NCBI GenBank assembly: GCA_016874775.1
Contig: VGTJ01000002.1
Location: forward strand, 8,700-72,699
Origin: Deltaproteobacteria bacterium
Lineage (GTDB): Bacteria; Desulfobacterota; Binatia; Bin18
Direction: 5' to 3'
DNA: 64,000 bases
Position numbers and translations under genes: made by a program. The notes beneath the pieces are model-generated. The model was not told the DNA's origin, did no database searches, and saw only the letters and a program-made list of their open reading frames with translations. Positions within the stretch are counted from its first letter, which is position 1, and each line of letters opens with the position of its first letter. Shown piece by piece: positions 20,335 to 51,199 of the stretch.

Positions 20335-21222
20335 TTATGCTACACGATACCGCTCTCCCTCCTGCACCACCCTTCCCTCCTGTATCAGTTTTTGGAGATG
20401 AAACTGCATCGAATTCTTCTCGACCGCATCAATCCAGACGACGTTATTGTAATCTTTGCGGTAGACGATTCGCTTCTTAATGATCTCGGTCAACGTGCGT
20501 GGTTGGGCAAGAAACTCCAGCAACATCTGCTCACGTTCATAGACGATATCCAGATAACTTTGCACTATTGCCGCTTGATCCTTCTCGCAAATCCCGACGT
20601 GATGGAAACTGACCAACGTGTTCGTACTGAGGGCACGAATCTGCTCTAGCGATGCGATGGTAGCAATAAGATCAGAGGTGGCATCGCCATACACCGGGCC
20701 AAATTTGGTCAGATCCCAATCTCCTAAGAACAGCAACCCTTCGTTCTCAAAAAAGAAACAGCAATGTCCGCCCGTATGACCGGGCGTATGCAGCACGCGC
20801 ATACGCGTGTGCCCGAAGTCATACACCTGACCATCGTGGAAATGCACCATCTGTTCGCGTGACTTATAGTGATACTTCTTGAGCAAAACTGGTCGCCACA
20901 CGTCATTCGACGCTTCATCCATACCATAGTAGTCCAGAAGCGTTTCCAACGAGCGCATCGCTGGCGCATCGAGTGCGTGGATGTGGAGCGGTACCTCGGG
21001 GAACCAATGACTGCCGATCCAGTGGTCTTCGTGGTAGTGGCTGTTGAGCAGCATATCCACCGGTCGGCCTGTCACCTTTCCTTGCATTTCATACACTGTC
21101 TGTGATGGGTCGATCAGCGCGGTCACATCATCTTCGACCAGGATCGAGTTACCGTGCGGATACTTGCCGTTTTTCTCACCGATAATGACTTTGACGCGAC
21201 CGAAACTACGCACCTCTGCCAT
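20335..21222 (-). CDS. MBL-fold metallo-hydrolase with a C-terminal winged-helix-like domain
   Basis: The HxHxDH motif (SHYHEDHWIGSHWF) is present, followed by downstream His/Asp ligands. GGAGG RBS precedes the ATG at 21222. The track ORF extends 122 codons further upstream (to 21588) with no homology, so I treat that extension as spurious. Confidence 0.75.
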   Translation of the reverse strand: MAEVRSFGRVKVIIGEKNGKYPHGNSILVEDDVTALIDPSQTVYEMQGKVTGRPVDMLLNSHYHEDHWIGSHWFPEVPLHIHALDAPAMRSLETLLDYYGMDEASNDVWRPVLLKKYHYKSREQMVHFHDGQVYDFGHTRMRVLHTPGHTGGHCCFFFENEGLLFLGDWDLTKFGPVYGDATSDLIATIASLEQIRALSTNTLVSFHHVGICEKDQAAIVQSYLDIVYEREQMLLEFLAQPRTLTEIIKKRIVYRKDYNNVVWIDAVEKNSMQFHLQKLIQEGRVVQEGERYRVA

Positions 21223-21367
21223 GAGTCCTCCGTGTATTACTGGTTGAGAAAGCGAAGTTATATACCGAATCCAGTTAATCAAGTAGGGAAGCGGCAGAAT
21301 GAATTGACCGACTATTGCAGGTGTGTATATTGAGGAAGAAATTTCCACACGTGGAGAAGCAAGCAGT

Positions 21368-21592
21368 ATGCGCACCTCTGGAACCCTGGCGAGAAAAAAT
21401 TTTATGGTCAATGAAGAAGACGTTCGTATGCTAAAGCGTGTCTTGCAAGTCGCCACTGAATCAGAAGCAGTCCGTATTGCCGTACGAGACCGACTTGCGC
21501 TTGAAAAAGCCCAAACCGCTTTTCGCCGCATCCGTGCACGCGGCGGTATTGAGGATGTTTTCCATCGGAGCGCCCCAGACTCGCGCAAATAA
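21368..21592 (+). CDS. vapB: type II antitoxin, VapB-like (DUF2191-like)
   Basis: MRTSGTLARKNFMVNEEDVRMLKRVLQVATESEAVRIAVRDRLALEKA has the ribbon-helix-helix-like pattern. Its stop lies 5 nt before the PIN-domain gene. Confidence 0.55.
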   Translation: MRTSGTLARKNFMVNEEDVRMLKRVLQVATESEAVRIAVRDRLALEKAQTAFRRIRARGGIEDVFHRSAPDSRK

Positions 21593-21597
21593 CCCCG

Positions 21598-22245
21598 ATG
21601 ATTGCTTTGCCTGTTATCTTCGATACTTCGATTTACATCCCATACCTCCGAGAAGAGGCATATACGGATCTTATAGAAAGCATGATCCGCACGGCTCGCG
21701 TTCGTCTCAGTACTGTCGTATTGAGTGAACTTTACGCTGGAACACGTTCTGCCCGGGATAAAGTGGATTTAGATGTAATTTATCGTACATATCAGTACTT
21801 CAGACACTTTTTCGGCGGAACATTTCTATAAAATCAGAAGGTTACGGCTACAAAATCGAATAAAAGCAAAGTTAGCATGCTCCCTGACTTGCATTTAATT
21901 CTCTGATCTCAAAGAAGTCGGCCATTTACGAATCGTCTATCTCCAAAAAGTGTCTACAGTATTGGTACATATCAGACATTGGGTTTTCTCGTGGTACCGA
22001 CCGCAGAAGATTGGATACGGGCAGGTCAAGGGATTCGCCACTACAGTCGGCTTTATGGGAATATTGAACCTCGAGAACATGTCAATGACATCCTCATTTT
22101 GCTCGCCGGTGCAGCGATTGGAGCTGAAGTTGTCACTGAAAACGCAAAGCACTTCACACGTTGGGCATTCTTATTACGGCGTATGGGATTCTCCACACGT
22201 GTGAGAGAAGTGCGTCGGAACGAGCATCTAGATCGGAATAGGTAA
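21598..22245 (+). pseudogene. vapC: PIN-domain toxin gene vapC split by a 169-bp insertion
   Basis: The N-terminal half (21598-21795, MIALPVIFDTSIYIPYLREE...DVIYRTYQ) continues in frame with the C-terminal half (21976-22245, TLGFLVVPTAEDWIRAG...DILILLAGAAIGAEVVTENAKHF) only once the element at 21796-21964 is removed. Both track ORFs (77 and 88 aa) are fragments of a single PIN domain. Confidence 0.7.
21796..21964. mobile_element. MITE-like non-autonomous insertion (169 bp) with terminal inverted repeats and an 11-bp target-site duplication
   Basis: The direct repeat GTACATATCAG occurs at 21785-21795 and again at 21965-21975. The element ends are TACTTCAGACACTTTTTCG (left) and, reverse-complemented, TACTGTAGACACTTTTTGG (right), matching at 17 of 19 positions. 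The interior is AT-rich with no ORF. Precise excision would restore an intact vapC reading frame. Confidence 0.6.
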
Positions 22246-22250
22246 CCACC

Positions 22251-23222
22251 ATGCCCATCTTGGGTCAGGCAATTTACGATCTCACACGCCTCTTTGGCTT
22301 ACGAGAAGCCGTAGACACACTCGACCTTGTTGCTCCTCCGACCGTCCGACTTGTTGCTCCTCACACCGCACCATCGCTCCGTCGTGTCGGAATCCTGTGC
22401 GGGTCATTCAATCCTCTCACTTTCGCCCACACGACCTTAGCAGAAAAAGCAATCGAAGCCTTTACCCTCGATCAGGTCTTCTTTACCCTTGCTAAAGTGA
22501 CAGTTGATAAAGAGCAAGTAACAGGCATGAGCTTAGAAGATCGTCTGTTGTCACTCTCGCTCTATGTTGAGCAACATCACAACCTCGGCGTCGCCCTCGT
22601 CAATCGTGGACTCTATTTCGAGCAAGCACAAGCATTTCACTCATTGTTTGGCAATCAGGTAGAGCTGAATTTCCTCATCGGCATGGACAAGTTGTTACAG
22701 ATTTTTGACCCGCGTTACTATCAAGATCGGGACGCAGCGCTACAACAACTCTTCAGTCTTACCTCACTTATTGTTGCCAATCGTGGCGATATGGATGAGC
22801 AGAGCTTTTCCCAATTATTCGACCAGCCTGAGAATCATCCGTTTCGTCAACACGTGCATTTCTTCACTCTCCCCGCAAATATCACCGACTTATCGGCGAC
22901 ACAGGTCCGTCACAACCTTGCGACCGAGCAACCCATCTCAGCGTATGTCCCTCCAGCAGTAGAAGAATTCATCAACGAGACTCGTGCGCATCATCCTCCG
23001 CAACAATGCGGCGAAGAACAGCTCTACGCTTATGCCGTTCGTCAAGCACTGCTCGCGTTACTGTTCACTGAACGTTCCTGGACAGAGCAAGAAATCGATT
23101 TTCAACGCCTGATGACTGCAGCGCTTTCACCAGATGCTCACGGTCGAGCACTACGCCAAGCGGGGAGTGGAAAGGATATCGGAGAGTCCATTGCCATCTT
23201 CCCCCTAAAGCCTGAAGCCTAA
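22251..23222 (+). CDS. NadD-like nucleotidyltransferase (nicotinate/nicotinamide-nucleotide adenylyltransferase family) with a ~130-aa C-terminal extension
   Basis: VGILCGSFNPLTFAH is the (H/T)xGH-type motif. The block order FTLAKVTVDKEQ...SLEDRLLSL...FLIGMDKL parallels NadD (FLP..PPHK, HRLAML, FIIGAD). Confidence 0.6.
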   Translation: MPILGQAIYDLTRLFGLREAVDTLDLVAPPTVRLVAPHTAPSLRRVGILCGSFNPLTFAHTTLAEKAIEAFTLDQVFFTLAKVTVDKEQVTGMSLEDRLLSLSLYVEQHHNLGVALVNRGLYFEQAQAFHSLFGNQVELNFLIGMDKLLQIFDPRYYQDRDAALQQLFSLTSLIVANRGDMDEQSFSQLFDQPENHPFRQHVHFFTLPANITDLSATQVRHNLATEQPISAYVPPAVEEFINETRAHHPPQQCGEEQLYAYAVRQALLALLFTERSWTEQEIDFQRLMTAALSPDAHGRALRQAGSGKDIGESIAIFPLKPEA

Positions 23223-23318
23223 AGGCTGGCCTTCGCCCAAGCCGATAGCTTTTTTCCCACGGTCCCTTGCGCCAGGCTGCCATAGCTCTCGCGCGATGAA
23301 GTTTATATAATACAGAGC

Positions 23319-40287: not shown

Positions 40288-43200
40288 ATGATCAAGCTCA
40301 CGGTACAGACCGGAACAGAAACAGGGAAAGAGATCTCCCCCTCAAGCGATCCGATTATTCTCGGACGGAGTAGCACCTGTACGGTCGTGCTCCATGATGC
40401 CGCAGTGTCTCGTCGCCATTCCAGCATTGAACGGCGCGGTAACGACTATATCTTGACCGATCTCCAAAGTGGCAACGGGACGTTTGTCAACTCACAAGGA
40501 ACGCGCATTACCGAGCCCTATACGCTGAAAGACGGCGATGAAATCCTCATCGGGAAAAGTCGTATCCGTGTAGACCTGTCGCTGCAGTCGCAGGAAAGTC
40601 CGGGGCCGCGCAACACTGCCAGTGCAGGACAACCCGCGGCTGCGACAGACGAATCCACTCGTATTGCCCAAGCACCGCCACCGGTCAGCCCAACCCCACC
40701 GGTCAGTCCAACGCCGCCGACTGCAACGGACGGTCTCAATGCCGTTCATCAACCAGACGTGCCGATCGTTGTGACTATCGTTGGTGGCCCAAACCGCGGC
40801 ATGGTTTACTCTCCGGCACGAGAGGTTATTTCCATCGGTCGTGCAACAACATGTGACATTGCCGTCAATGACTCTACCGCTTCTCGGGTGCATGCCACGA
40901 TTAAGCGGGAGGCAGGGAAATACCGCCTGTATGATAACAATAGTGTCAATGGTGTGTATTTAAGCACCCCGCAAACTCGCGTCTATCAAACCGACCTCGC
41001 TGATGGAGATACATTTTTCGTTGGCCAGAACCAATTTCGCGTCGAAATCCATCTTACGCATCCCCCTGTATCCTTAGAAGTTGGCAGTGAAGAAGCCATG
41101 CGCATTACTGGAACCGTCGGCGGCAAAAACTTTACTTTCACCCTGAGCGCGCTCAGCGGCGGCACACGAGCAACGCAGATAGTGCCAACCGATGAAGCAA
41201 CTCGCGTTGCGATGGCACAAAGCAGTACCCCACCTCTTGATGAAGCAACCCGTTTTGTTAGGCAACCTGCGGTTCCACCAAAGCAACCGACGAGCGCGGC
41301 TCCGGCTGGTCCTAAAATTTCCCTACGGGTGATCGAAGGAGCAGATCAAGGGACGGTTTTCACTCCTCTTCCTGGTGTGGAACGTTACACCATCGGTCGT
41401 GGCGAACAAGCAACGTTTCGTCTGCAAGATCGCGGAGCATCACGTATTCACTGCGCAATCGAGATTTCCCCCGCTGGGTTTTTCCTAGTCGATGATGGAA
41501 GCCTGAACGGGACGTTTATCGGACAGAACACCGAGCGTATTACTCGTGTGGCTCTCAAGGGCGGCGAAGAAGTCTTGCTGGCAGACACTCGGTTCAAGGT
41601 TGAGATCACCCTTCCTGAAGGTGCCGCAGCCGCCGCTGAGGGTGCCGATGAAAAGACCTCGTATGTTCCCTATCATGCGCCAACTCCACCAGCCGCAACA
41701 CCGGATGCACCAGTACCTGTGGTCGTTGAGCAGCCCGCCACCGAGAATGTCAGGTCACGTTCGGCGGCGTTCAAAGATCGTTTAGCTATTATCGCTCGGC
41801 AAAGTGGAGTGACGTTACGACCGTTCACAGTTCCCGGCACTCCTCGACAGTGGGCCACATTTGCCTTGATGTTGGTTGCAGCCCTGAGTTCGTATGGCTT
41901 CGCGGTGCTCGGACGGTCTGACTATTTTGCCGGTGGTCCAATTTCAGAAAGTCACGCCAAGCTAGAGAACGGCACCTTTGAACAGCGCTGTACAGCGTGC
42001 CATCCCACTTGGGGTCTTCAACCAGTCAATGCCACCTGCGCCGCCACGGACTGTCACGCTGATGTATTGAAAGTGAGAGACGACCGGCGTGACGATTGCG
42101 TCAGTTGTCATACTGAACACCGAGGCCGGACCTTCGCGATCAAAGGCGGAAAAGAGCAATGTTGGAGTTGTCATGAAGCAGGCATGAACGTCCGTGCGTA
42201 TGCCTCACGTCCGATGGGAGTGTATCACACGCAAGTCTTTTCTGTCGCTGAACAGCTGATCCCACAACCCGGAAAAGTGCCGACGCAAGGGATACAACCG
42301 GCAGCACTCTCCACCGCACGAGAGACCTGGCAGAAAGATTTCTCTGCGCAGCCGACTGGGCTCAAGTATGCACACGCTCTCCACAGCGCGCAGGTGTTAG
42401 AGAAAAACAAGAAGCAGGAGCAATGTTTGGATTGCCACGTCAAGTTATTAGACGGGCAGTTTGCGCCATTCCCCACACATGCTCAGTGTATCGATTGTCA
42501 CAAAGAGGTTGCCAACGTCGATCCCCAGATCGCCAAGAAGAGCGCCTCGAAAGATTGTGAGTTGTGCCACACCCAGGCCGACGGGGGTGTGACCCATGTC
42601 GCACGAAATATCAACTACGTCGTCTTTCAGCATAACGATCATGGGCAAATGCGCTGTGTTCAGTGTCATGCGGTTGTGACAAGCGAGACTGAGTATCGCC
42701 CGGTCCTCCGCTCTTCAGCAGCATATCCGATGCCGATGGACGCCTGCTATTCGTGTCATGAAGAGAAGAAAGTAACGATCGCCTGCTTAGATTGCCATCG
42801 ACAACATCACAGTTATCCATCGACGACCGAATTGGCTTGGGGTTGGTTTGGTGGTCTGTCATTGAACGGCGTGCTTCTTTCTATGCTTGGACTCGTAGGT
42901 GCGACCGGTGCCTATATCTACGCAGACATGCGCCTCGCTCGACGATGGCTGGCGTCATTAGAAACGGCTACGCCACCCCCCGCAAACGAAGCGGCACCAG
43001 CAGCAGCAGGACACGACGGGCATGAGGGAGAAGCGGCACCAGCAGCAGCGGCACCAGCAGCGGCGATCCCACCACCTACTCCGAGTAGTGAGGGAGCCCT
43101 GTACCCCTATCCGACAATTGACTCCGACGCCTGTCTGCCATGCGGTACCTGTTATGACTCATGTCCCGGAAAAGTACTGGCACTGTCTCCAGCGACACAC

Positions 43201-44280
43201 AAGGCTGCGGTTGTCACTCCTGGTGCATGTCGGTCACTCACCGAAGGCTGTACCATTTGTCATGAGAACTGCCCGACCGGCGCGATCCGTATCTCGCCTG
43301 TGCCGATCGTCAGAAAATCTGAACGACCGGATATTGACCCCAACAGCGAAAGTCACAATGTTCCGGGCATCTTTTTGGGCGGAGAAATTCTGGGCAACGC
43401 TCTCATCAAAAAGGTCGTCAATCAGGGCGGACAAATTGTTCGTTACATCGATACTCGTAAACCGCGGATTCCTGAAGCCCAGTACGACGTTATCATCGTC
43501 GGTGCTGGTCCTTGTGGACTCGCTGCCGGTCTCGAAGCCAAACAACGTGGTCTTCGGTACGTGGTGCTTGAACGCGAGAGTTTGGCGAATACGATCCAGA
43601 ACTACCCACGAGATAAAGCCGTGCTCGCCGAACCAGTGCAGATGGCAGTCTACGGCTTGTTACCGATGAAAGATGCAACCAAGGAAGACCTCGTCGCACT
43701 GTGGGAAGACATTGTCCGCAAGGAAAGCTTGCACGTGAATACCCACGAAGAGGTCAGCGAAGTCAAGAAGAACGGCAACGTGATAACCGTCACCACGAAT
43801 AAAGGCACCTATCAGACCGGGTATGTGATTCTCGCCTTAGGTGCGCGGGGCAACCCTCGCAAACTCGGTGCAGCGGGTGAGGATCTTCCTAAAGTATCGT
43901 ATAACCTCAACGACCCTGCAGAATGGCAAGGGAAGCACGTGCTGGCCGTCGGTGGCGGTGACAGCGCCATTGAGGCGGCAGTAGCGATCTCCAAACAGCC
44001 AGGGGCCACGGCGACAATCTCGTATAGAAGCGGGGCTTTCTCGCGCGCGGCAGCACGAAACGTCGAAGCCATTAAAGAACAAGAAAAAGCCGGAAAACTG
44101 AAAGTGTTATTGAATTCTAACGTCACAAAAATCGAAGAGAAACGGGTCTCAATCAAAGCAGGGAACGAAGTCCACGAACTCGACAATGACGCCGTGTTTG
44201 TCCTCATCGGTGCTGATCCACCAAAGGCCTGGCTGGAAAAAATGGGGATAAAATACGTGATTGTTGAGAAAACGATCTAA
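40288..44280 (+). CDS. 1330-aa multidomain fusion protein: three FHA domains, TM helix, periplasmic ~10-haem cytochrome c, TM helix, 2x[4Fe-4S] ferredoxin, FAD/NAD(P)-binding pyridine-nucleotide oxidoreductase
   Basis: The three FHA domains are ILGRSSTCTVVL...SRRHSSI...NGTFVN, ISIGRATTCDIAV...SRVHATI...SVNGVYL and YTIGRGEQATFRL...SRIHCAI...SLNGTFIG. Pro-rich linkers join them (PPVSPTPPVSPTPP). TM1 is WATFALMLVAALSSYGFAVLG. Nine CxxCH motifs plus one Cx4CH (CAATDCH) follow. TM2 is GLSLNGVLLSMLGLVGATGAYIYA. Then come CLPCGTCYDSCP plus C...CTICHENCP, then YDVIIVGAGPCGLAAG and VLAVGGGDSAIEAA Rossmann motifs. The reading frame is uninterrupted throughout. Confidence 0.8.
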   Translation: MIKLTVQTGTETGKEISPSSDPIILGRSSTCTVVLHDAAVSRRHSSIERRGNDYILTDLQSGNGTFVNSQGTRITEPYTLKDGDEILIGKSRIRVDLSLQSQESPGPRNTASAGQPAAATDESTRIAQAPPPVSPTPPVSPTPPTATDGLNAVHQPDVPIVVTIVGGPNRGMVYSPAREVISIGRATTCDIAVNDSTASRVHATIKREAGKYRLYDNNSVNGVYLSTPQTRVYQTDLADGDTFFVGQNQFRVEIHLTHPPVSLEVGSEEAMRITGTVGGKNFTFTLSALSGGTRATQIVPTDEATRVAMAQSSTPPLDEATRFVRQPAVPPKQPTSAAPAGPKISLRVIEGADQGTVFTPLPGVERYTIGRGEQATFRLQDRGASRIHCAIEISPAGFFLVDDGSLNGTFIGQNTERITRVALKGGEEVLLADTRFKVEITLPEGAAAAAEGADEKTSYVPYHAPTPPAATPDAPVPVVVEQPATENVRSRSAAFKDRLAIIARQSGVTLRPFTVPGTPRQWATFALMLVAALSSYGFAVLGRSDYFAGGPISESHAKLENGTFEQRCTACHPTWGLQPVNATCAATDCHADVLKVRDDRRDDCVSCHTEHRGRTFAIKGGKEQCWSCHEAGMNVRAYASRPMGVYHTQVFSVAEQLIPQPGKVPTQGIQPAALSTARETWQKDFSAQPTGLKYAHALHSAQVLEKNKKQEQCLDCHVKLLDGQFAPFPTHAQCIDCHKEVANVDPQIAKKSASKDCELCHTQADGGVTHVARNINYVVFQHNDHGQMRCVQCHAVVTSETEYRPVLRSSAAYPMPMDACYSCHEEKKVTIACLDCHRQHHSYPSTTELAWGWFGGLSLNGVLLSMLGLVGATGAYIYADMRLARRWLASLETATPPPANEAAPAAAGHDGHEGEAAPAAAAPAAAIPPPTPSSEGALYPYPTIDSDACLPCGTCYDSCPGKVLALSPATHKAAVVTPGACRSLTEGCTICHENCPTGAIRISPVPIVRKSERPDIDPNSESHNVPGIFLGGEILGNALIKKVVNQGGQIVRYIDTRKPRIPEAQYDVIIVGAGPCGLAAGLEAKQRGLRYVVLERESLANTIQNYPRDKAVLAEPVQMAVYGLLPMKDATKEDLVALWEDIVRKESLHVNTHEEVSEVKKNGNVITVTTNKGTYQTGYVILALGARGNPRKLGAAGEDLPKVSYNLNDPAEWQGKHVLAVGGGDSAIEAAVAISKQPGATATISYRSGAFSRAAARNVEAIKEQEKAGKLKVLLNSNVTKIEEKRVSIKAGNEVHELDNDAVFVLIGADPPKAWLEKMGIKYVIVEKTI

Positions 44281-44929: not shown

Positions 44930-47900
44930 CTATCGCGTGCGAGCAACACGCCCGCCATTACTTTTTTCTAACTTGACTTCTTTCGGTGGCAGGGCAAGAG
45001 TCTTGCCATCTATCGTGTCAACTCGGATGAAGCGGACCACCGCACGGTTCCCTTCGTTGCGGACGCTCACATCCCGGAACGATACACTGTAGCTTTTGTA
45101 CCCCTCCAGGATCCCACGAAGTCTGGTCGCGTCCTGTGCTGAGATTTCGCCGAGCTGCACCAGGGCATCCGTATTTTTGTTTTCCCATGCCGGGCGATAG
45201 ATGGTTTCCAGCCAGTTCATGGCTTCTCTATCACTGGGAGGTCCGGCTTCCTTTGCCCGTTCAGTTTCTTCGCGTTGGACCTTCGCCAATCGTTCCTCTT
45301 CCGCCAGTCTCGCGGCTTCTGCTTTCCGCCGCTCTTCCTCTGCAGCTCTCTGGCGAACGGCCTCTTCTGCTCTGCGCCGTTCCTCTTCCGCTCGTGCAGT
45401 TTTCTCTTGTTCAGCTCTCAAGCGCTCAGCTTCTGCCTTTGCTGCCTTCTCTTGTTCCGCTTTCAACCGATCGGCCTCCGCCTTTGCCGCTTTCTCTTGA
45501 TCCGCCTTGAGCTTTTCAGCTTTGGCTTGTTCGGCTTTCACACGATCGGCTTCCGCTTTTGCCGCCTTTTCTTGTTCAGCTTTGAGTCGTTCCGCCTCGG
45601 CCCGTAGGGTCTTTTCTTGTTCAGCTTTTAGGCGGTCAGCTTCCGCTTTTGCCGCTTTCTCTTGGTCCGCCTTAAGCTTCTCAGCTTTGGCTTGTTCGGC
45701 TTTCACACGATCGGCTTCCGCTTTTGCTGCTTCCGCCTTTCGCCGATCTTCCTCTGCTTTCTGAGCTTTGGCTACTTCTTCAGCTTTGCGGCGATCGTCT
45801 TCTGCCTTTTGGGATTTAGCTACCTCCTCGGCCTTACGACGTTCTTCCTCTGCTTTCAATTGGTCGGCTTTGGCTTGTTCAGCTTTCAGACGCGCCTCTT
45901 CTTCTTGTGCTGCATTCGCTTGGGCGGCCTTTCGGGCTTCTTCCTCCTGCGCCTGCTGAGTCGACGGTTTCTGCGGGTTAACTGACTCTCCTCCTCGGCT
46001 GAAATAAAACCCTAAGGCAGCAACAACGACAAACGCGGCGATACCTGCGACAACTGGCGAAGATTGACGCGCAGGAGAAGGGGCATCCACGGGAACGGGA
46101 CGACTGGTACGCTCGCCTTCCGTTGTTGGCCCCTGATCAAGCAGCGGATGGACTTCTGTTTCTTGCTGCTGCAATGCGGAGAGAAGTGCAGAGGCTTCAT
46201 TATAGCTCGCGAGCGCTTGTGGGTAGCGTTTTTGCTGAAACGACTGATCGCCTGTAGTGATAAACTTCTCAGCTGACTTTTTCTGTTTCCCTTTCGCAGT
46301 CTGCGTTTGTTGTCGCAGCTCGTACGCGCGAGTTCTTGCACCCTCGGCTTCATGCTTTTGCCATGCAACCTCAGACTCTTGGCGAATCTGTTTCCAGCGC
46401 GAAACATTACGGTCAAACTGGTCTCGTGCCGCATCAAACTTTTCGTCGGCAAGCGCCTGCTCTGCCTTATGCAACTCAGACATCGCCTCGACATGTTGAC
46501 CAGGAAGAAATTCTTCACTCCTGACCGCCTGGGCCTCTGCCTGGGCTGCAACGGCCCGTTTCTGCGACTCTGTCGCGGCTTGCTTCGCTCGGGCAAGCCG
46601 GGCAATTCCCAATGCCTGACCAAACAACTCTCCTGCTTGCGCTGAGAGCGTAACCGATTCCTCGAATTGCTTTGCAGCTAACGCAGCCTCCGCCTGCTCT
46701 CGCACTTCCTGTGCTTGTCGATAGAGGTCTGCAGCATATTGTGGAGCATGCACGGCGTCAGCTTCGCGTTGACGTCCTTTCGCTTCTTGATTAGCCAAGA
46801 GGGCACGTTGCTGCTGCTCCTCTACTTCAGCTTCAGCTTGCGCGTACTCATAGATCTGTGCAGCCTGCGCATAATGCGCGCGGGCTTGCTCATACGCCTG
46901 TGCCTGCCACGCTTTCTCACCTTCGGTCTCGGAGGTTTGCGCTTCTTTCCACCGGGCTGCGGCAAAACGAGGAGCTAGGGTGCTGGCCGCTTGTTTTGCC
47001 TGTGCGGCTTGCTGCCGCACAACATCGGCCTCTTCCTGAGCAATTTGTTGCTGCACCGCCTGAACGAGCTTGATAAACTGTTGTTGCGCTTGTTCGTAAT
47101 TCTGGCGGGCTGTAGTGAAGTCATCTTTTTTTTGCGCAGCCTGGCCACGTTCGAAAAGTCCTCGAACCTGAGCAAACTCGCGCGGGAAACGTTGCTCGGC
47201 AGAACTCTGGGTTGCGGCAGATCCTGCTTCTTCTGCACGTTGCAGAGCAGCAAGCATTTCCTGCTTAGCGTACTCATGCTGTGCCGTACCCTTCGCCTGC
47301 ACAAAGAGTTCTTCTGCGTGGCGATACTCACGTGTAGCTTGACTAAATTTTTGCTGTCGTTGGTGGCGACTCGCTTCATCGAGAGCCGCCGCCGCCTGGT
47401 TAAAATCCGTGGCCGCATAGCGTGGGGCATCAACTTCTTCGGCTTGCTTCTTCGCAGTACCAGCCTGTTTTTCTGCCGCAGCGGTTTCTTGTCGGAGTCG
47501 TTCCTGTTCTCCTGCTGTCGCTGCCGTCGTGTATAACTGCGCCGTCTGTGTGTACTGCGCCAGTGCGTTTTCGTAGTCTTGGTCTGAGAACGCTCGCTCG
47601 GCATCGGCTTCTTGCTTCTGCGCGGCCTCCCATTGTGCGTTGGCCCATTGTTTCAGCTCACTCGCGTTCTCTTTCGCCTGCAGCATCTGTTGGCGCGCCG
47701 CTGCAGCGTCTTCGCGTGCAGCCTCAACGTCTGCGTCACGACGAAGACGCAACAGTTGCTGACGAGCCTGTTCGTATAAATCACTCGCTTGGGAGAAGTC
47801 TTGTTGTGTTTCCGCTTGTTGTCCCCGGACAACTACCTGTTGAGCACGAGCAAACTCTTGTGCGAAGCGTGAGTGGACTGCCGCTTCAGTGGCTGCAACC

Positions 47901-50900
47901 TGAGCAGCTTCCAATCGCTGACGCAGGGCAATGACAGCCTGCCGCGCTCTTTCTTGTTGTGCATCGTGCGCAGCTTGTGACCACAGTGACCGTGCTTGTG
48001 CAAACGCTTGGCTGGCATCGTTCCAGTGCTGGGCGTGCATCTGTTGTTCGGCCTGTTGAGCAGTCTGCGCCCCTTGCTGAAAGAGCGCCGTAGCGTACCT
48101 TTCCGCCTCAGCTCGTTGCGCTTCAGCGCGAGCTTCTTCCGCTTGTTGCTGCGCATCGAGTGCGCGGCGTCGCTGCCGCTCGATCTCAGCTGCGTGTCGA
48201 GCCTTCTCGGCCTCTGTTCGCGCTTCTATGTAACGTTGCGTGACGCGATCATACGCTTCTGCTGCTTTCGCATACTGCTGGGCTTCCCAGGCGGCGTTCG
48301 CTTCAGCTTCTGTTCGTTCCGCGTCAGCCCATTTCGCTCCGCGCCATTCAGTGAGCCCCGCCAATCCATTCCTAGATTCAGCCGCACGTTTCCGTGCGGC
48401 TTCCGCCTTTTCCTTCTCAGCTTGCCGAAAGGCTTCGCCCCCAAGACGCTCCCAGAGTTGACGTGCTTGCTGATAGGCCTCGCTTGCCTGAGAGAAATTC
48501 TCTTGCGTTTCCGCTTGGGCCGCTTGCTCAACAAGGTGTGAGGCTTTAGCAAAATCCGTGGCAAAGCGTTGTGCAGCCCCGGACTTCTCGGCAATCTGCC
48601 GTGCTTCCGTTGTACGTTGTCGAGCGCTTACGGCTTCCTGTCTGTGACGTTCCCGTTGCGCATCGTCAGCAGCTTTCGCCAGCAGCTCTGCCGCGCGCCA
48701 ATAGCGTTGAATCGCCGCCCGCAATTCTTTGGTGCGAATCTGTTTTTCAGCGTCGCTCAGTGCAGCAAGCCCATCGCGCCACAACTCAGCAGCGTAACGC
48801 GTTGCTTCGCGTTGTTCAGCGCGCGTTTTTGCAGACTGCGCTTGCTGCTGTGCATCACGGACTTCCTGTTGTAATTGTTCTTGCTCAGCGTTAGTGCGTG
48901 CTTGGGTATAAGCCTTCGCAGCCTGAGTGTAGAGATCCGTAGCACTGCGATATTCTTGCTTCTGGTAGGCCTGGTCCGCACGCTGCACACGTTCACGCGC
49001 CTGCGCCCAGTTCTCCTTAGCCCAGGCCTGCAGGGGCTCACTCCCCTGCACCACTTCTGCCATTTTCTGCCGCGCGGTATCAGCCTGCTCACGGGCAGCA
49101 AGCACGGCACATTCACGCGCGAGTTGTTGAAAGCGCTGGGCGGCCTCTGTATAGCGGTGGCGAGATTCGCGATATTGCTCTCGCTTTTCGTGCTCTTGTC
49201 CCTCGGCAACCAAGCGTTGAATCTGTTGGTAGGAGGAAGCCGCGCGTTCCTTTGCTTCCGCTTGGTCAGCTTGCACTTGGGCTTGTTGCAGCTGTTGCCG
49301 GACTGCAGCAGTAGCCTGTCGATCTTGTTCGGTAGCGGCTTCTTGGGTGGCTTGCTCATAGCGATCGCGCGCCTGCAGATACGCCTGCTTGGCCTTGTCA
49401 TACGCCTTCGCTTGCAACTGCGTGTCACCTTGCTTCTGGAACAAGGTAGCTTGCTGATACAACGGAGAGGCAAGATCGCGCGCCTGCGCGTCTTCAGCTT
49501 GACGCTGTGCTTCTTTGGCTTGTTGTTGGACGGCGACGGTTTCTAACCGTTGCTGTTCATTGACTGCCTCTTGTTGCGCACGCTCATATTTTTGCGCAGC
49601 AGCAAGATATAACTCACGCGCTTGGGTAAATTCTTCATGCGTGATTGCTGCACTTGCCCGTTGTTCTTGATCTGCAGCTTCACGAAAGAGGTTAGCGGCA
49701 AGTCGTGTCGCACCTTGCTCTTCCGCCGCCGCTTTTGCAGCGGTCGCCCGCGCATGCGCTTTCTCTGCTTCGTCTTTTAGGGTCTCACGGTACGCTTGCT
49801 CGCGAGCATCAGCGAAGGAACGTGCAGCTTCACTATAGCCGTGCGCCGCGTGCTGAAAATCACCTTTCTCAAGAAATTCATCAGCTTGCGATTCCAGGGT
49901 GAGGGCACGCGCGTATCGCGTGCGCGCGTGCCCTCGTGCGCCGTAGTGCTCAGCCTCTTCCTTGGCGGCGGCCATGTTACCCCGTGCCTGCTCGGCTTTC
50001 CGTTTGGCTGCTGCGGTTTGCGCTTCTGCGGCTGCCTGGGTGAAGATCTGGATGGCCTCATCGAATGCTTGTTGAGCTGCGGTAAAGTCCTTGTCCCGTA
50101 AGCTCTTCGCACCGTGTCCTTCCGCCGTCATTCCTTGCTGAAGCAAGGTGGCAGCCCATTCTGACGCACCGTCACGAGTCGCGCGTTCGCGTGCCTCACG
50201 CGCTTGCGTCTGGAGCGACAAAATACGACGACGCTCCCGTTCTTCTTCAAGTTTGCGGATCTGGTCTTCGATATCGTCGTCAGCCTGTGCCTCTTGCTTT
50301 TTCTCTTCTTTTTTTCCCAGCCCAGAGAGAATCAGCGTACCGGTGTCTTCTCCATCAGCGCTCAAATTCCGACAGCTCTCTAGCGCTTGCAGTAGTTCCC
50401 GCATGCTGTGGTAGCGATGGGCACGATTTTTCGCGATCGCCCGCGTCAACAGGTCAGCAAACGCGGCAGGCGTTGGGCGATCAAAGTGCGGCTCGTTCTC
50501 TTTGGTATCGTACAAGACCTTGCCCAGCACGGCATGTTCATCGAGCCCGCCGAAGAATTGCCTACCGGTGCACATCTCATACATCACCATACCCAGCGAA
50601 TAGACATCCGCTCCACCGTCAAGCTGCTCATGGCGCAGTTGCTCAGGCGAGGCATATTTCAAGGTCCCGATCACCATGCCGGTCTTGGTGGAATCGCCAT
50701 CGCCCAGTTCCTTGGCGATGCCAAAGTCCATCACCACCACGCGTGACGAATGGTCCTCAATCATGATGTTGGCGGGTTTGATGTCACGATGGATGATCGG
50801 CGGGGTATGGCCGTGGGCATAGCCTAGGGCTTCAGCGACCTGGCGCGAGATACGCAGAATTTCCGGCAGCGGCAACGGGCCTTTTTCACGGATGTATTTT

Positions 50901-51199
50901 CCAAGCGTCACCCCCTCGATGTACTCCATGACAAAGTAGTAGAGGTTCAGAGTCTCATCGCGCTCGATATCAAGGACACGAACGATATTGGGATGGTTAA
51001 GCCGAGCCATGACGCGCGCTTCCCGATAGAAGCGGTTCACCATGTCTTCGTTTTCCATCAAATACGCAGGCAGGACCTTGAGGGCAGAGATGGTGTCGAG
51101 GGCGGTGTGGCGAACTTTATACACCAGCCCCATGCCACCTTGACCCAGTTGGCCAACAACCTCGTACTTGCGGGAAATCACCATCGGCTTAGTTGCCAT
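44930..51199 (-). CDS. giant (2089-aa) Hanks-type Ser/Thr protein kinase: N-terminal kinase domain, a ~1100-aa degenerate helical repeat region, TM helix, a ~300-aa K/E/A-rich TolA-like spacer, C-terminal NTF2-like domain
   Basis: The kinase domain has GQGGMGLVYKV, the K in ALKVL, HRDIKPANIMI, DFGIAKE and GTLKYASPEQ. Repeated W..A..W...Y..A..Y and RFA.EFA blocks follow. The TM helix is VVAGIAAFVVVAALGFYF. Then come KAEQEKAAKAEADRLKAEQ repeats, and then the NTF2-like domain. Confidence 0.9.
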   Translation of the reverse strand: MATKPMVISRKYEVVGQLGQGGMGLVYKVRHTALDTISALKVLPAYLMENEDMVNRFYREARVMARLNHPNIVRVLDIERDETLNLYYFVMEYIEGVTLGKYIREKGPLPLPEILRISRQVAEALGYAHGHTPPIIHRDIKPANIMIEDHSSRVVVMDFGIAKELGDGDSTKTGMVIGTLKYASPEQLRHEQLDGGADVYSLGMVMYEMCTGRQFFGGLDEHAVLGKVLYDTKENEPHFDRPTPAAFADLLTRAIAKNRAHRYHSMRELLQALESCRNLSADGEDTGTLILSGLGKKEEKKQEAQADDDIEDQIRKLEEERERRRILSLQTQAREARERATRDGASEWAATLLQQGMTAEGHGAKSLRDKDFTAAQQAFDEAIQIFTQAAAEAQTAAAKRKAEQARGNMAAAKEEAEHYGARGHARTRYARALTLESQADEFLEKGDFQHAAHGYSEAARSFADAREQAYRETLKDEAEKAHARATAAKAAAEEQGATRLAANLFREAADQEQRASAAITHEEFTQARELYLAAAQKYERAQQEAVNEQQRLETVAVQQQAKEAQRQAEDAQARDLASPLYQQATLFQKQGDTQLQAKAYDKAKQAYLQARDRYEQATQEAATEQDRQATAAVRQQLQQAQVQADQAEAKERAASSYQQIQRLVAEGQEHEKREQYRESRHRYTEAAQRFQQLARECAVLAAREQADTARQKMAEVVQGSEPLQAWAKENWAQARERVQRADQAYQKQEYRSATDLYTQAAKAYTQARTNAEQEQLQQEVRDAQQQAQSAKTRAEQREATRYAAELWRDGLAALSDAEKQIRTKELRAAIQRYWRAAELLAKAADDAQRERHRQEAVSARQRTTEARQIAEKSGAAQRFATDFAKASHLVEQAAQAETQENFSQASEAYQQARQLWERLGGEAFRQAEKEKAEAARKRAAESRNGLAGLTEWRGAKWADAERTEAEANAAWEAQQYAKAAEAYDRVTQRYIEARTEAEKARHAAEIERQRRRALDAQQQAEEARAEAQRAEAERYATALFQQGAQTAQQAEQQMHAQHWNDASQAFAQARSLWSQAAHDAQQERARQAVIALRQRLEAAQVAATEAAVHSRFAQEFARAQQVVVRGQQAETQQDFSQASDLYEQARQQLLRLRRDADVEAAREDAAAARQQMLQAKENASELKQWANAQWEAAQKQEADAERAFSDQDYENALAQYTQTAQLYTTAATAGEQERLRQETAAAEKQAGTAKKQAEEVDAPRYAATDFNQAAAALDEASRHQRQQKFSQATREYRHAEELFVQAKGTAQHEYAKQEMLAALQRAEEAGSAATQSSAEQRFPREFAQVRGLFERGQAAQKKDDFTTARQNYEQAQQQFIKLVQAVQQQIAQEEADVVRQQAAQAKQAASTLAPRFAAARWKEAQTSETEGEKAWQAQAYEQARAHYAQAAQIYEYAQAEAEVEEQQQRALLANQEAKGRQREADAVHAPQYAADLYRQAQEVREQAEAALAAKQFEESVTLSAQAGELFGQALGIARLARAKQAATESQKRAVAAQAEAQAVRSEEFLPGQHVEAMSELHKAEQALADEKFDAARDQFDRNVSRWKQIRQESEVAWQKHEAEGARTRAYELRQQTQTAKGKQKKSAEKFITTGDQSFQQKRYPQALASYNEASALLSALQQQETEVHPLLDQGPTTEGERTSRPVPVDAPSPARQSSPVVAGIAAFVVVAALGFYFSRGGESVNPQKPSTQQAQEEEARKAAQANAAQEEEARLKAEQAKADQLKAEEERRKAEEVAKSQKAEDDRRKAEEVAKAQKAEEDRRKAEAAKAEADRVKAEQAKAEKLKADQEKAAKAEADRLKAEQEKTLRAEAERLKAEQEKAAKAEADRVKAEQAKAEKLKADQEKAAKAEADRLKAEQEKAAKAEAERLRAEQEKTARAEEERRRAEEAVRQRAAEEERRKAEAARLAEEERLAKVQREETERAKEAGPPSDREAMNWLETIYRPAWENKNTDALVQLGEISAQDATRLRGILEGYKSYSVSFRDVSVRNEGNRAVVRFIRVDTIDGKTLALPPKEVKLEKSNGGRVARTR
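45420..45770. repeat. near-identical in-frame tandem DNA repeats (165-bp period with ~82-bp sub-period) inside the kinase gene
   Basis: The unit starting TCAGCTTTGGCTTGTTCGGCTTTCACACGATCGGCTTCCGCTTTTGCCGC at 45516 recurs at 45681 with only 1-2 mismatches. The repeats encode the duplicated ...AKAEADRVKAEQAKAEKLKADQEKAAKAEADRLKAEQEK... segment. Confidence 0.7.

Follow-up and report, generated by a model that had tools for sequence, protein, structure and literature searches.

MITEs are recognized by terminal inverted repeats, short flanking direct repeats, a short interior devoid of open reading frames (ORFs), and dependence on a transposase acting in trans (PMC3718332). The Sulfolobus MITEs SM3A (164 bp) and SMN1 (320 bp) are mobilized in this way by the transposases of ISC1058 and ISC1733 (PMC3718332, section 4.10). 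Here we describe a small element that interrupts a toxin gene in a 64-kb stretch of deltaproteobacterial DNA, referred to below as the window. The element is 169 bp long (or 172 bp, depending on where its boundary is drawn), has inverted repeats at its ends, is flanked by a target duplication verified against an empty site, and contains neither a transposase gene nor any other ORF. It therefore shares with SM3A and SMN1 the size class, inverted repeats, flanking direct repeats, and ORF-less interior, and, like them, would presumably rely on a transposase encoded elsewhere. In contrast to SM3A and SMN1, whose families range from several to many copies in a genome and have identified parent insertion sequences (ISs), the element described here was found as one copy with no parent, and its sequence is unrelated to anything retrievable. 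The original prediction of a MITE thus holds for the structure of the element but found no support in the family sense, since every search returned this one locus. We describe it as a MITE-like, non-autonomous, apparently solitary element, which joins an already known kind as an ordinary mobile-element insertion.

Overall, the gene of a PIN-domain (VapC-type) toxin has probably been interrupted by a short non-autonomous transposable element, which would be a MITE or else the remnant of an IS that lost internal sequence. We favor the insertion of a transposable element because the direct repeat and the inverted termini are unique, the inserted sequence is AT-rich and free of ORFs, the rebuilt PIN domain aligns without gaps, and the orthologous site is empty. 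By analogy with established transposition biology, a DDE-type transposase acting in trans would have bound the 17- to 20-nt inverted termini and cut the target with a stagger of 8 or 11 bp; gap repair would then have duplicated that stretch of vapC.

The interrupted toxin gene and its empty site

The vapC gene is split into two fragments on the forward strand. According to the ORF list and its translations, the 5′ fragment (21598–21795) comprises native codons 1 to 66 and holds residues D9 and E44, while the 3′ fragment (21976–22245) comprises codons 67 to 155 with the stop codon, holds D104 and E121/N122, and is free of lesions. When the two are joined, they yield 468 nt with an unbroken frame and a 155–amino acid (aa) product. 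To rebuild the gene, 180 bp has to be taken out, namely, the 169-bp element and one copy of an 11-bp repeat. That removal of 21796–21964 and one repeat copy restores a continuous PIN-domain ORF had been proposed originally, and every coordinate given there was borne out on reading 21200–22600. The empty-site junction of the rebuilt gene is TTATCGTACATATCAGACATTGGGTT, and an excised (uninterrupted) vapC would be marked by the junction sequence TATCGTACATATCAGACATTGGG.

The rebuilt 155-aa protein matches the Pfam PIN family with 33.2 bits (cutoff of 23.6) over residues 6 to 130, and the match crosses the junction. By itself, the 5′ fragment scores 20.0 bits, which is under the cutoff, and the 3′ fragment has no Pfam match. 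A protein search with the rebuilt sequence returned 65 homologs, nearly all of 146 to 155 aa, the best of which (P0001) is 81% identical and scores 29.5 bits against Pfam PIN. The alignment of the rebuilt protein with 12 full-length homologs (150 to 155 aa) is gap-free at the junction. In the 13 aligned sequences, D9, E44, and D104 do not vary, and E121 hardly does; the rebuilt protein keeps all four residues, which presumably correspond to the acidic active-site residues of PIN domains. Scores against the NCBIfam VapC equivalogs were 27.1 bits for NF047959 (cutoff of 80) and 17.8 bits for NF047863 (cutoff of 140). Because both fall below the cutoffs, the accurate label is that of a predicted PIN-domain, VapC-like toxin outside the curated VapC equivalogs.

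Translation of the 5′ fragment runs through 66 native and 11 element-encoded codons before reaching a TAA stop at 21829–21831, which gives a 77-aa product. A second in-frame stop, TGA, lies within the element at 21904–21906. The premature stop parts D9 and E44 from D104 and E121, so that the 77-aa product has two of the four conserved acidic residues, and a toxin truncated 11 codons beyond the junction would presumably be inactive. The two vapC halves contain no further stop and no frameshift. With regard to the suggestion that the insertion inactivated the toxin and left the antitoxin intact, the disruption of the PIN domain and the open upstream ORF were both observed, and a loss of toxicity would be expected. 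For annotation purposes, the 77-aa and 84/88-aa ORFs are better treated as a single vapC pseudogene.

The best homolog, P0001, is encoded on three contigs (L004, L005, and L006), which include the NCBI metagenome-assembled genome GCA_043772795.1. The order of genes on these contigs is the same as in the window: a luciferase-like monooxygenase, Lactamase_B, a small ORF, PIN, a nicotinate-nucleotide adenylyltransferase-like (NadD-like) gene, cyclase/FHA, and transketolase. Since the neighbors are the same, we treat the three contigs as the orthologous locus, which is ~72 to 81% identical to the window at the DNA level, with 81% aa identity in vapC. As can be seen from the DNA alignment, vapC is intact in the ortholog (155 aa), and the insertion point is represented by one copy of the site with no insert, reading ...CATC GCTCGTATCAG GCGTTAGG... 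Compared to it, the window has 180 extra bases, corresponding to the element and the second 11-bp copy. Comparison with an empty site had been proposed at the outset, and its result is clear: since the syntenic ortholog is intact, with a single-copy site and no insert, the interruption of vapC is, on this alignment, a true insertion with target duplication. The empty single-copy site rules out an ancient indel without target duplication. The two loci also differ further downstream, where an extra 207-aa gene without a Pfam match (L004:6923–7546) lies between the NadD-like and cyclase/FHA genes in a position occupied by a 96-bp spacer in the window (23223–23318).

Boundaries and composition of the element

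The direct repeat GTACATATCAG occurs exactly twice in the 64-kb window, at 21785–21795 (left copy) and 21965–21975 (right copy), while 0.01 occurrences are expected in a motif scan. Between the two copies lies the non-coding element (21796–21964, 169 bp). Its left terminal inverted repeat is TACTTCAGACACTTTTT (21796–21812, forward strand), and the right one is TACTGTAGACACTTTTT (21945–21961, reverse strand), the two being identical at 15 of 17 positions. When up to two mismatches are allowed, these are the sole matches to the terminal motif in the window, with 0.00 expected. The right inverted repeat is separated from the right direct repeat by 3 nt, TTG (21962–21964), so that the element ends are asymmetrical when the duplication is read as 11 bp.

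An alternative boundary is obtained if the left CAG is assigned to the element. In this case, the duplication is 8 bp long (GTACATAT), the element occupies 172 bp (21793–21964), and the inverted repeats are extended to 20 nt (CAGTACTTCAGACACTTTTT and CAATACTGTAGACACTTTTT), matching at 17 of 20 positions and both beginning with 5′-CA. With a single copy of the element, the 11-bp and 8-bp readings both fit. Of the boundaries proposed initially, the 11-bp target-site duplication is thus supported by the exact repeat and by the single-copy site in the ortholog, but its length is ambiguous, since 8 bp also fits; the ~19-bp terminal inverted repeats need correction to 17 or 20 nt.

The GC content of the element is 38%, compared to 53% for the window. 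Stop codons close each of the six frames, none of which stays open for more than 34 codons, in agreement with the expectation that the element has no coding capacity. No promoter-like or terminator-like site was detected inside it by consensus scan. At a permissive threshold (E ≤ 10), no Rfam family was assigned to the element; the only two matches in region 21300–22400 were at chance level (E = 7 to 9), with scores far below the gathering scores.

Target duplications of ~8 to 13 bp are typical of the IS4 family, whose ends often read 5′-CA or 5′-CT; duplications of 8 to 9 bp are also made by several other IS families. The 11-bp (or 8-bp) duplication and, under the alternative boundary, the 5′-CA at both ends are IS4-like features, and the element may resemble this family. 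Unlike IS4 family members, it has no transposase, and the collections searched yielded no IS that shares its ends.

Further copies and a parent IS

A second copy of the element or a matching IS end was sought first of all in the surrounding sequence, and none was present in the window together with ~9 kb of extra contig flanks (~73 kb in total). There was likewise no second copy in the related loci, and the interior of the element matches nothing there or in the window. Among 185,579 species-representative genomes, a set that does not include the source genome, the left-end 20-mer had one match, in Proteus. It is attributed to chance (~1 match is expected for 20 nt in 596 Gb) and shows no further similarity. 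A degenerate 19-mer covering both ends, TACTKYAGACACTTTTTSG, matched 42 loci in the metagenome collection, but only one of them, which is the known locus (L027), has the whole element. The other 41 are isolated chance matches of 19 to 26 nt, and their loci lack a partner repeat. They include L041, whose contig name belongs to the same series (Ga01941xx) as the element-carrying JGI contigs and which proved to be AT-rich unrelated sequence. The metagenome scan was incomplete, as it did not return L009, a JGI contig that carries the element.

The end motif had 0 matches in viral contigs. The sole viral match to the gapped core motif, L060, was dismissed as chance: it comes from an AT-rich phage, and the outer bases disagree. 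In the PLSDB plasmids, the whole element and each of its ends gave either no matches or only chance matches of 19 to 27 nt inside genes, and a comparison of six-frame peptides of the element with 5.8 billion proteins produced nothing at E ≤ 10. No transposase associated with these ends is encoded in the window. Of the checks proposed at the outset, the search for further copies of the 169-bp element and that for an autonomous IS sharing its terminal inverted repeats thus both came back empty, the former in ~73 kb of the genome or in the collections searched, the latter with exact or degenerate end motifs in genome, metagenome, viral, and plasmid collections. These results are weak evidence for the lack of copies because the source genome lies outside the genome collection and L009 was missed by the metagenome scan.

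Stronger evidence on the same question comes independently from assembly data. The element is crossed without a break by Logan contigs (k = 31) of four accessions (L002/L008, L007, L010, and L013). Since a second near-identical copy should have broken such contigs, this argues against near-identical copies in the same organism. A weak counter-hint for another copy is provided by the Logan contig L011, which stops 42 nt inside the element (window position 21837).

In an alternative reading, a full-length IS entered vapC and later lost its interior in situ. The two ends left behind would never have moved as a miniature and would have founded no family. This is the strongest competitor of the preferred reading, although we regard it as unlikely. 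The single copy found anywhere and the Logan contigs that traverse the element agree with it, but a full-length IS with these ends was not found either, the lack of copies carries little weight when the source genome is not wholly in the collections and L009 was missed, and the end of L011 within the element points the other way.

A mobile element would not be needed at all if the insert were filler DNA introduced by repair or replication slippage, with the 11-bp repeat and the inverted ends arising by chance or microhomology. While the lack of relatives in the searches is compatible with such an origin, an exact 11-bp duplication abuts inverted termini that match at 15 of 17 positions, each motif being expected approximately zero times by chance. 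Besides, the interior has no match elsewhere in the window or in related loci, and its AT-rich composition is unlike that of the host, which makes filler DNA very improbable. Scarcely credible is an intervening sequence that would leave vapC functional by being cut out of the RNA or DNA, through intron-like or programmed excision: the insert and one repeat together measure 180 bp, which is divisible by three (a 1-in-3 chance coincidence), both vapC halves are undamaged, and the termini can pair as a stem (−44.8 kcal/mol, z = −3.8), but group I, group II, and ribozyme matches are absent at Rfam E ≤ 10, both the TAA and the TGA stops are in frame, direct repeats with inverted termini are a transposition signature, and most of the folding signal is due to the terminal inverted repeats.

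Age, spread, and surroundings of the interrupted cassette

To return to the insertion of a non-autonomous element, its age was estimated from substitution patterns, with the divergence from the closest relative as reference. The rebuilt vapC as a whole had a Nei-Gojobori dN/dS of 0.093 against the ortholog; taken separately, its 5′ and 3′ fragments had 0.106 and 0.080. Similar values, from 0.04 to 0.10, were obtained for the surrounding genes, with the antitoxin-like ORF at 0.096 (compared with L004) and the other neighbors at 0.04 to 0.06. Given the low dN/dS and a dS of >1, vapC would have experienced purifying selection along nearly the entire branch. As a rough guide, 468 neutral bases should gather ~50 × d disabling mutations by the time they have diverged by d, which gives a 95% bound of ~6% on neutral divergence since the insertion. 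A dN/dS of ~0.09 in both halves, the lack of other lesions, and the perfect repeat suggest that the insertion occurred late on this lineage. The interrupted gene had also been read as evidence of recent transposition activity in this genome, which goes too far: the insertion is late but apparently fixed in the sampled populations, and no other fresh insertion was seen.

The interrupted allele is present in at least 12 contigs that are 99.9 to 100% identical across 4 kb. They come from Logan (SRR7053297, SRR7052762, SRR16108673, SRR7990525, and ERR14789947), ENA (ERZ27247963), and JGI (3300020200 and 3300020197). An assembly artifact was rejected, as the same structure appears in at least 12 contigs from three different assembly pipelines. 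The insertion appears to be fixed in the sampled population, since the protein database has no uninterrupted allele closer than 81%. Two of the contigs, L009 (JGI 3300020200) and L010 (Logan SRR7052762), which come from different samples and assemblers, both break off at position 23186 of the window, shortly before the NadD-like gene is complete at its 3′ end, which suggests a strain-variable point or a repeat.

Upstream of vapC, in the position of vapB, lies a full-length 74-aa ORF (21368–21592, forward strand) that is present in the ORF list, was predicted by gene callers, and is called in all metagenome copies. Its end is 5 nt from the vapC start. A 64-aa ORF occupies the same position in the orthologous locus L004. 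The 74-aa ORF has no match in Pfam or NCBIfam families and can be described as antitoxin-like by position and conservation only. Since it stays open, the cell may tolerate the loss of the toxin or benefit from it. On the opposite strand, this ORF is overlapped by the upstream part of a 417-aa ORF with a TTG start (20335–21588, reverse strand). The latter is an over-extension, as gene callers and the Pfam Lactamase_B match support a 295-aa gene (~20335–21222).

A sigma-70–like sequence, TTGACC-16-TATATT (21304–21331, forward strand), matches the consensus at 10 of 12 positions, which is not evidence of function, and is the likely predicted promoter of vapBC. Downstream, the NadD-like gene (22251–23222, forward strand; PF01467, named after the source annotation) starts 5 nt after the vapC stop. 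With so short a distance, it may depend on transcription through the interrupted operon and is possibly co-transcribed with it.

In three relatives with ~80% DNA identity (L056 to L058), the whole vapBC cassette is absent, and ~76 bp replaces window positions 21235–22268 (L056:3780–3870, L057:3899–3974, and L058:3874–3949). There, the divergent Lactamase_B gene and the NadD-like gene are immediate neighbors. An intact cassette was seen only in the lineage of L004, whereas that of the window has the interrupted form. Because L056 to L058 lack it, the cassette is, as far as these genomes indicate, accessory, having been gained or lost within the group. Other differences were noted nearby. An IS1 copy (InsA zinc ribbon and DDE_Tnp_IS1; L057:29–773) lies ~1 kb from the luciferase-like gene; the end motif of the element has no match at this locus, and the IS1 ends are unrelated to those of the element. 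Just past the luciferase-like gene, L056 (703–1415) and L058 (836–1482) carry another toxin-antitoxin–like pair, DUF433 and DUF5615, in the place taken by a Na+/H+ exchanger gene in the window. Gains and losses of toxin-antitoxin–like cassettes seem to be concentrated in this neighborhood.

In decayed type II toxin-antitoxin loci, the toxin is disrupted and an “orphan” antitoxin survives. The locus described here is similar in that a PIN/VapC-type toxin is interrupted, the small upstream ORF is intact, and the cassette is accessory; it differs in that there is a single clean insertion and secondary decay is absent. It thus offers a natural toxin-gene knockout whose empty site is preserved in a relative, a tidy example of toxin-antitoxin cassette decay in which an accessory system was disarmed while the antitoxin was kept, perhaps together with a promoter feeding the nadD-like gene.

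Precise excision is known for Tn10/Tn5-type insertions. As the vapC halves are undamaged, the 11-bp repeats perfect, and the termini inverted, such an event between the direct repeats would restore a functional toxin, and the lesion could in principle be reversible. That the insertion is a selected, potentially reversible off-switch, or else the first sighting of an undescribed IS/MITE lineage, strikes us as quite improbable, less so than filler DNA. If it were an off-switch, the antitoxin left behind would act as an orphan module against addiction, and transcription of the essential-looking NadD-like gene would continue from the vapB promoter. An undescribed lineage would be one with no relatives in ~185,000 species genomes.

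Farther from the cassette, the window contains two very large ORFs of 2089 aa (44930–51199, reverse strand) and 1330 aa (40288–44280, forward strand). Just beyond its right end, a multihaem-cytochrome–like gene cluster with faint Pfam matches is located at L062:8437–12966.
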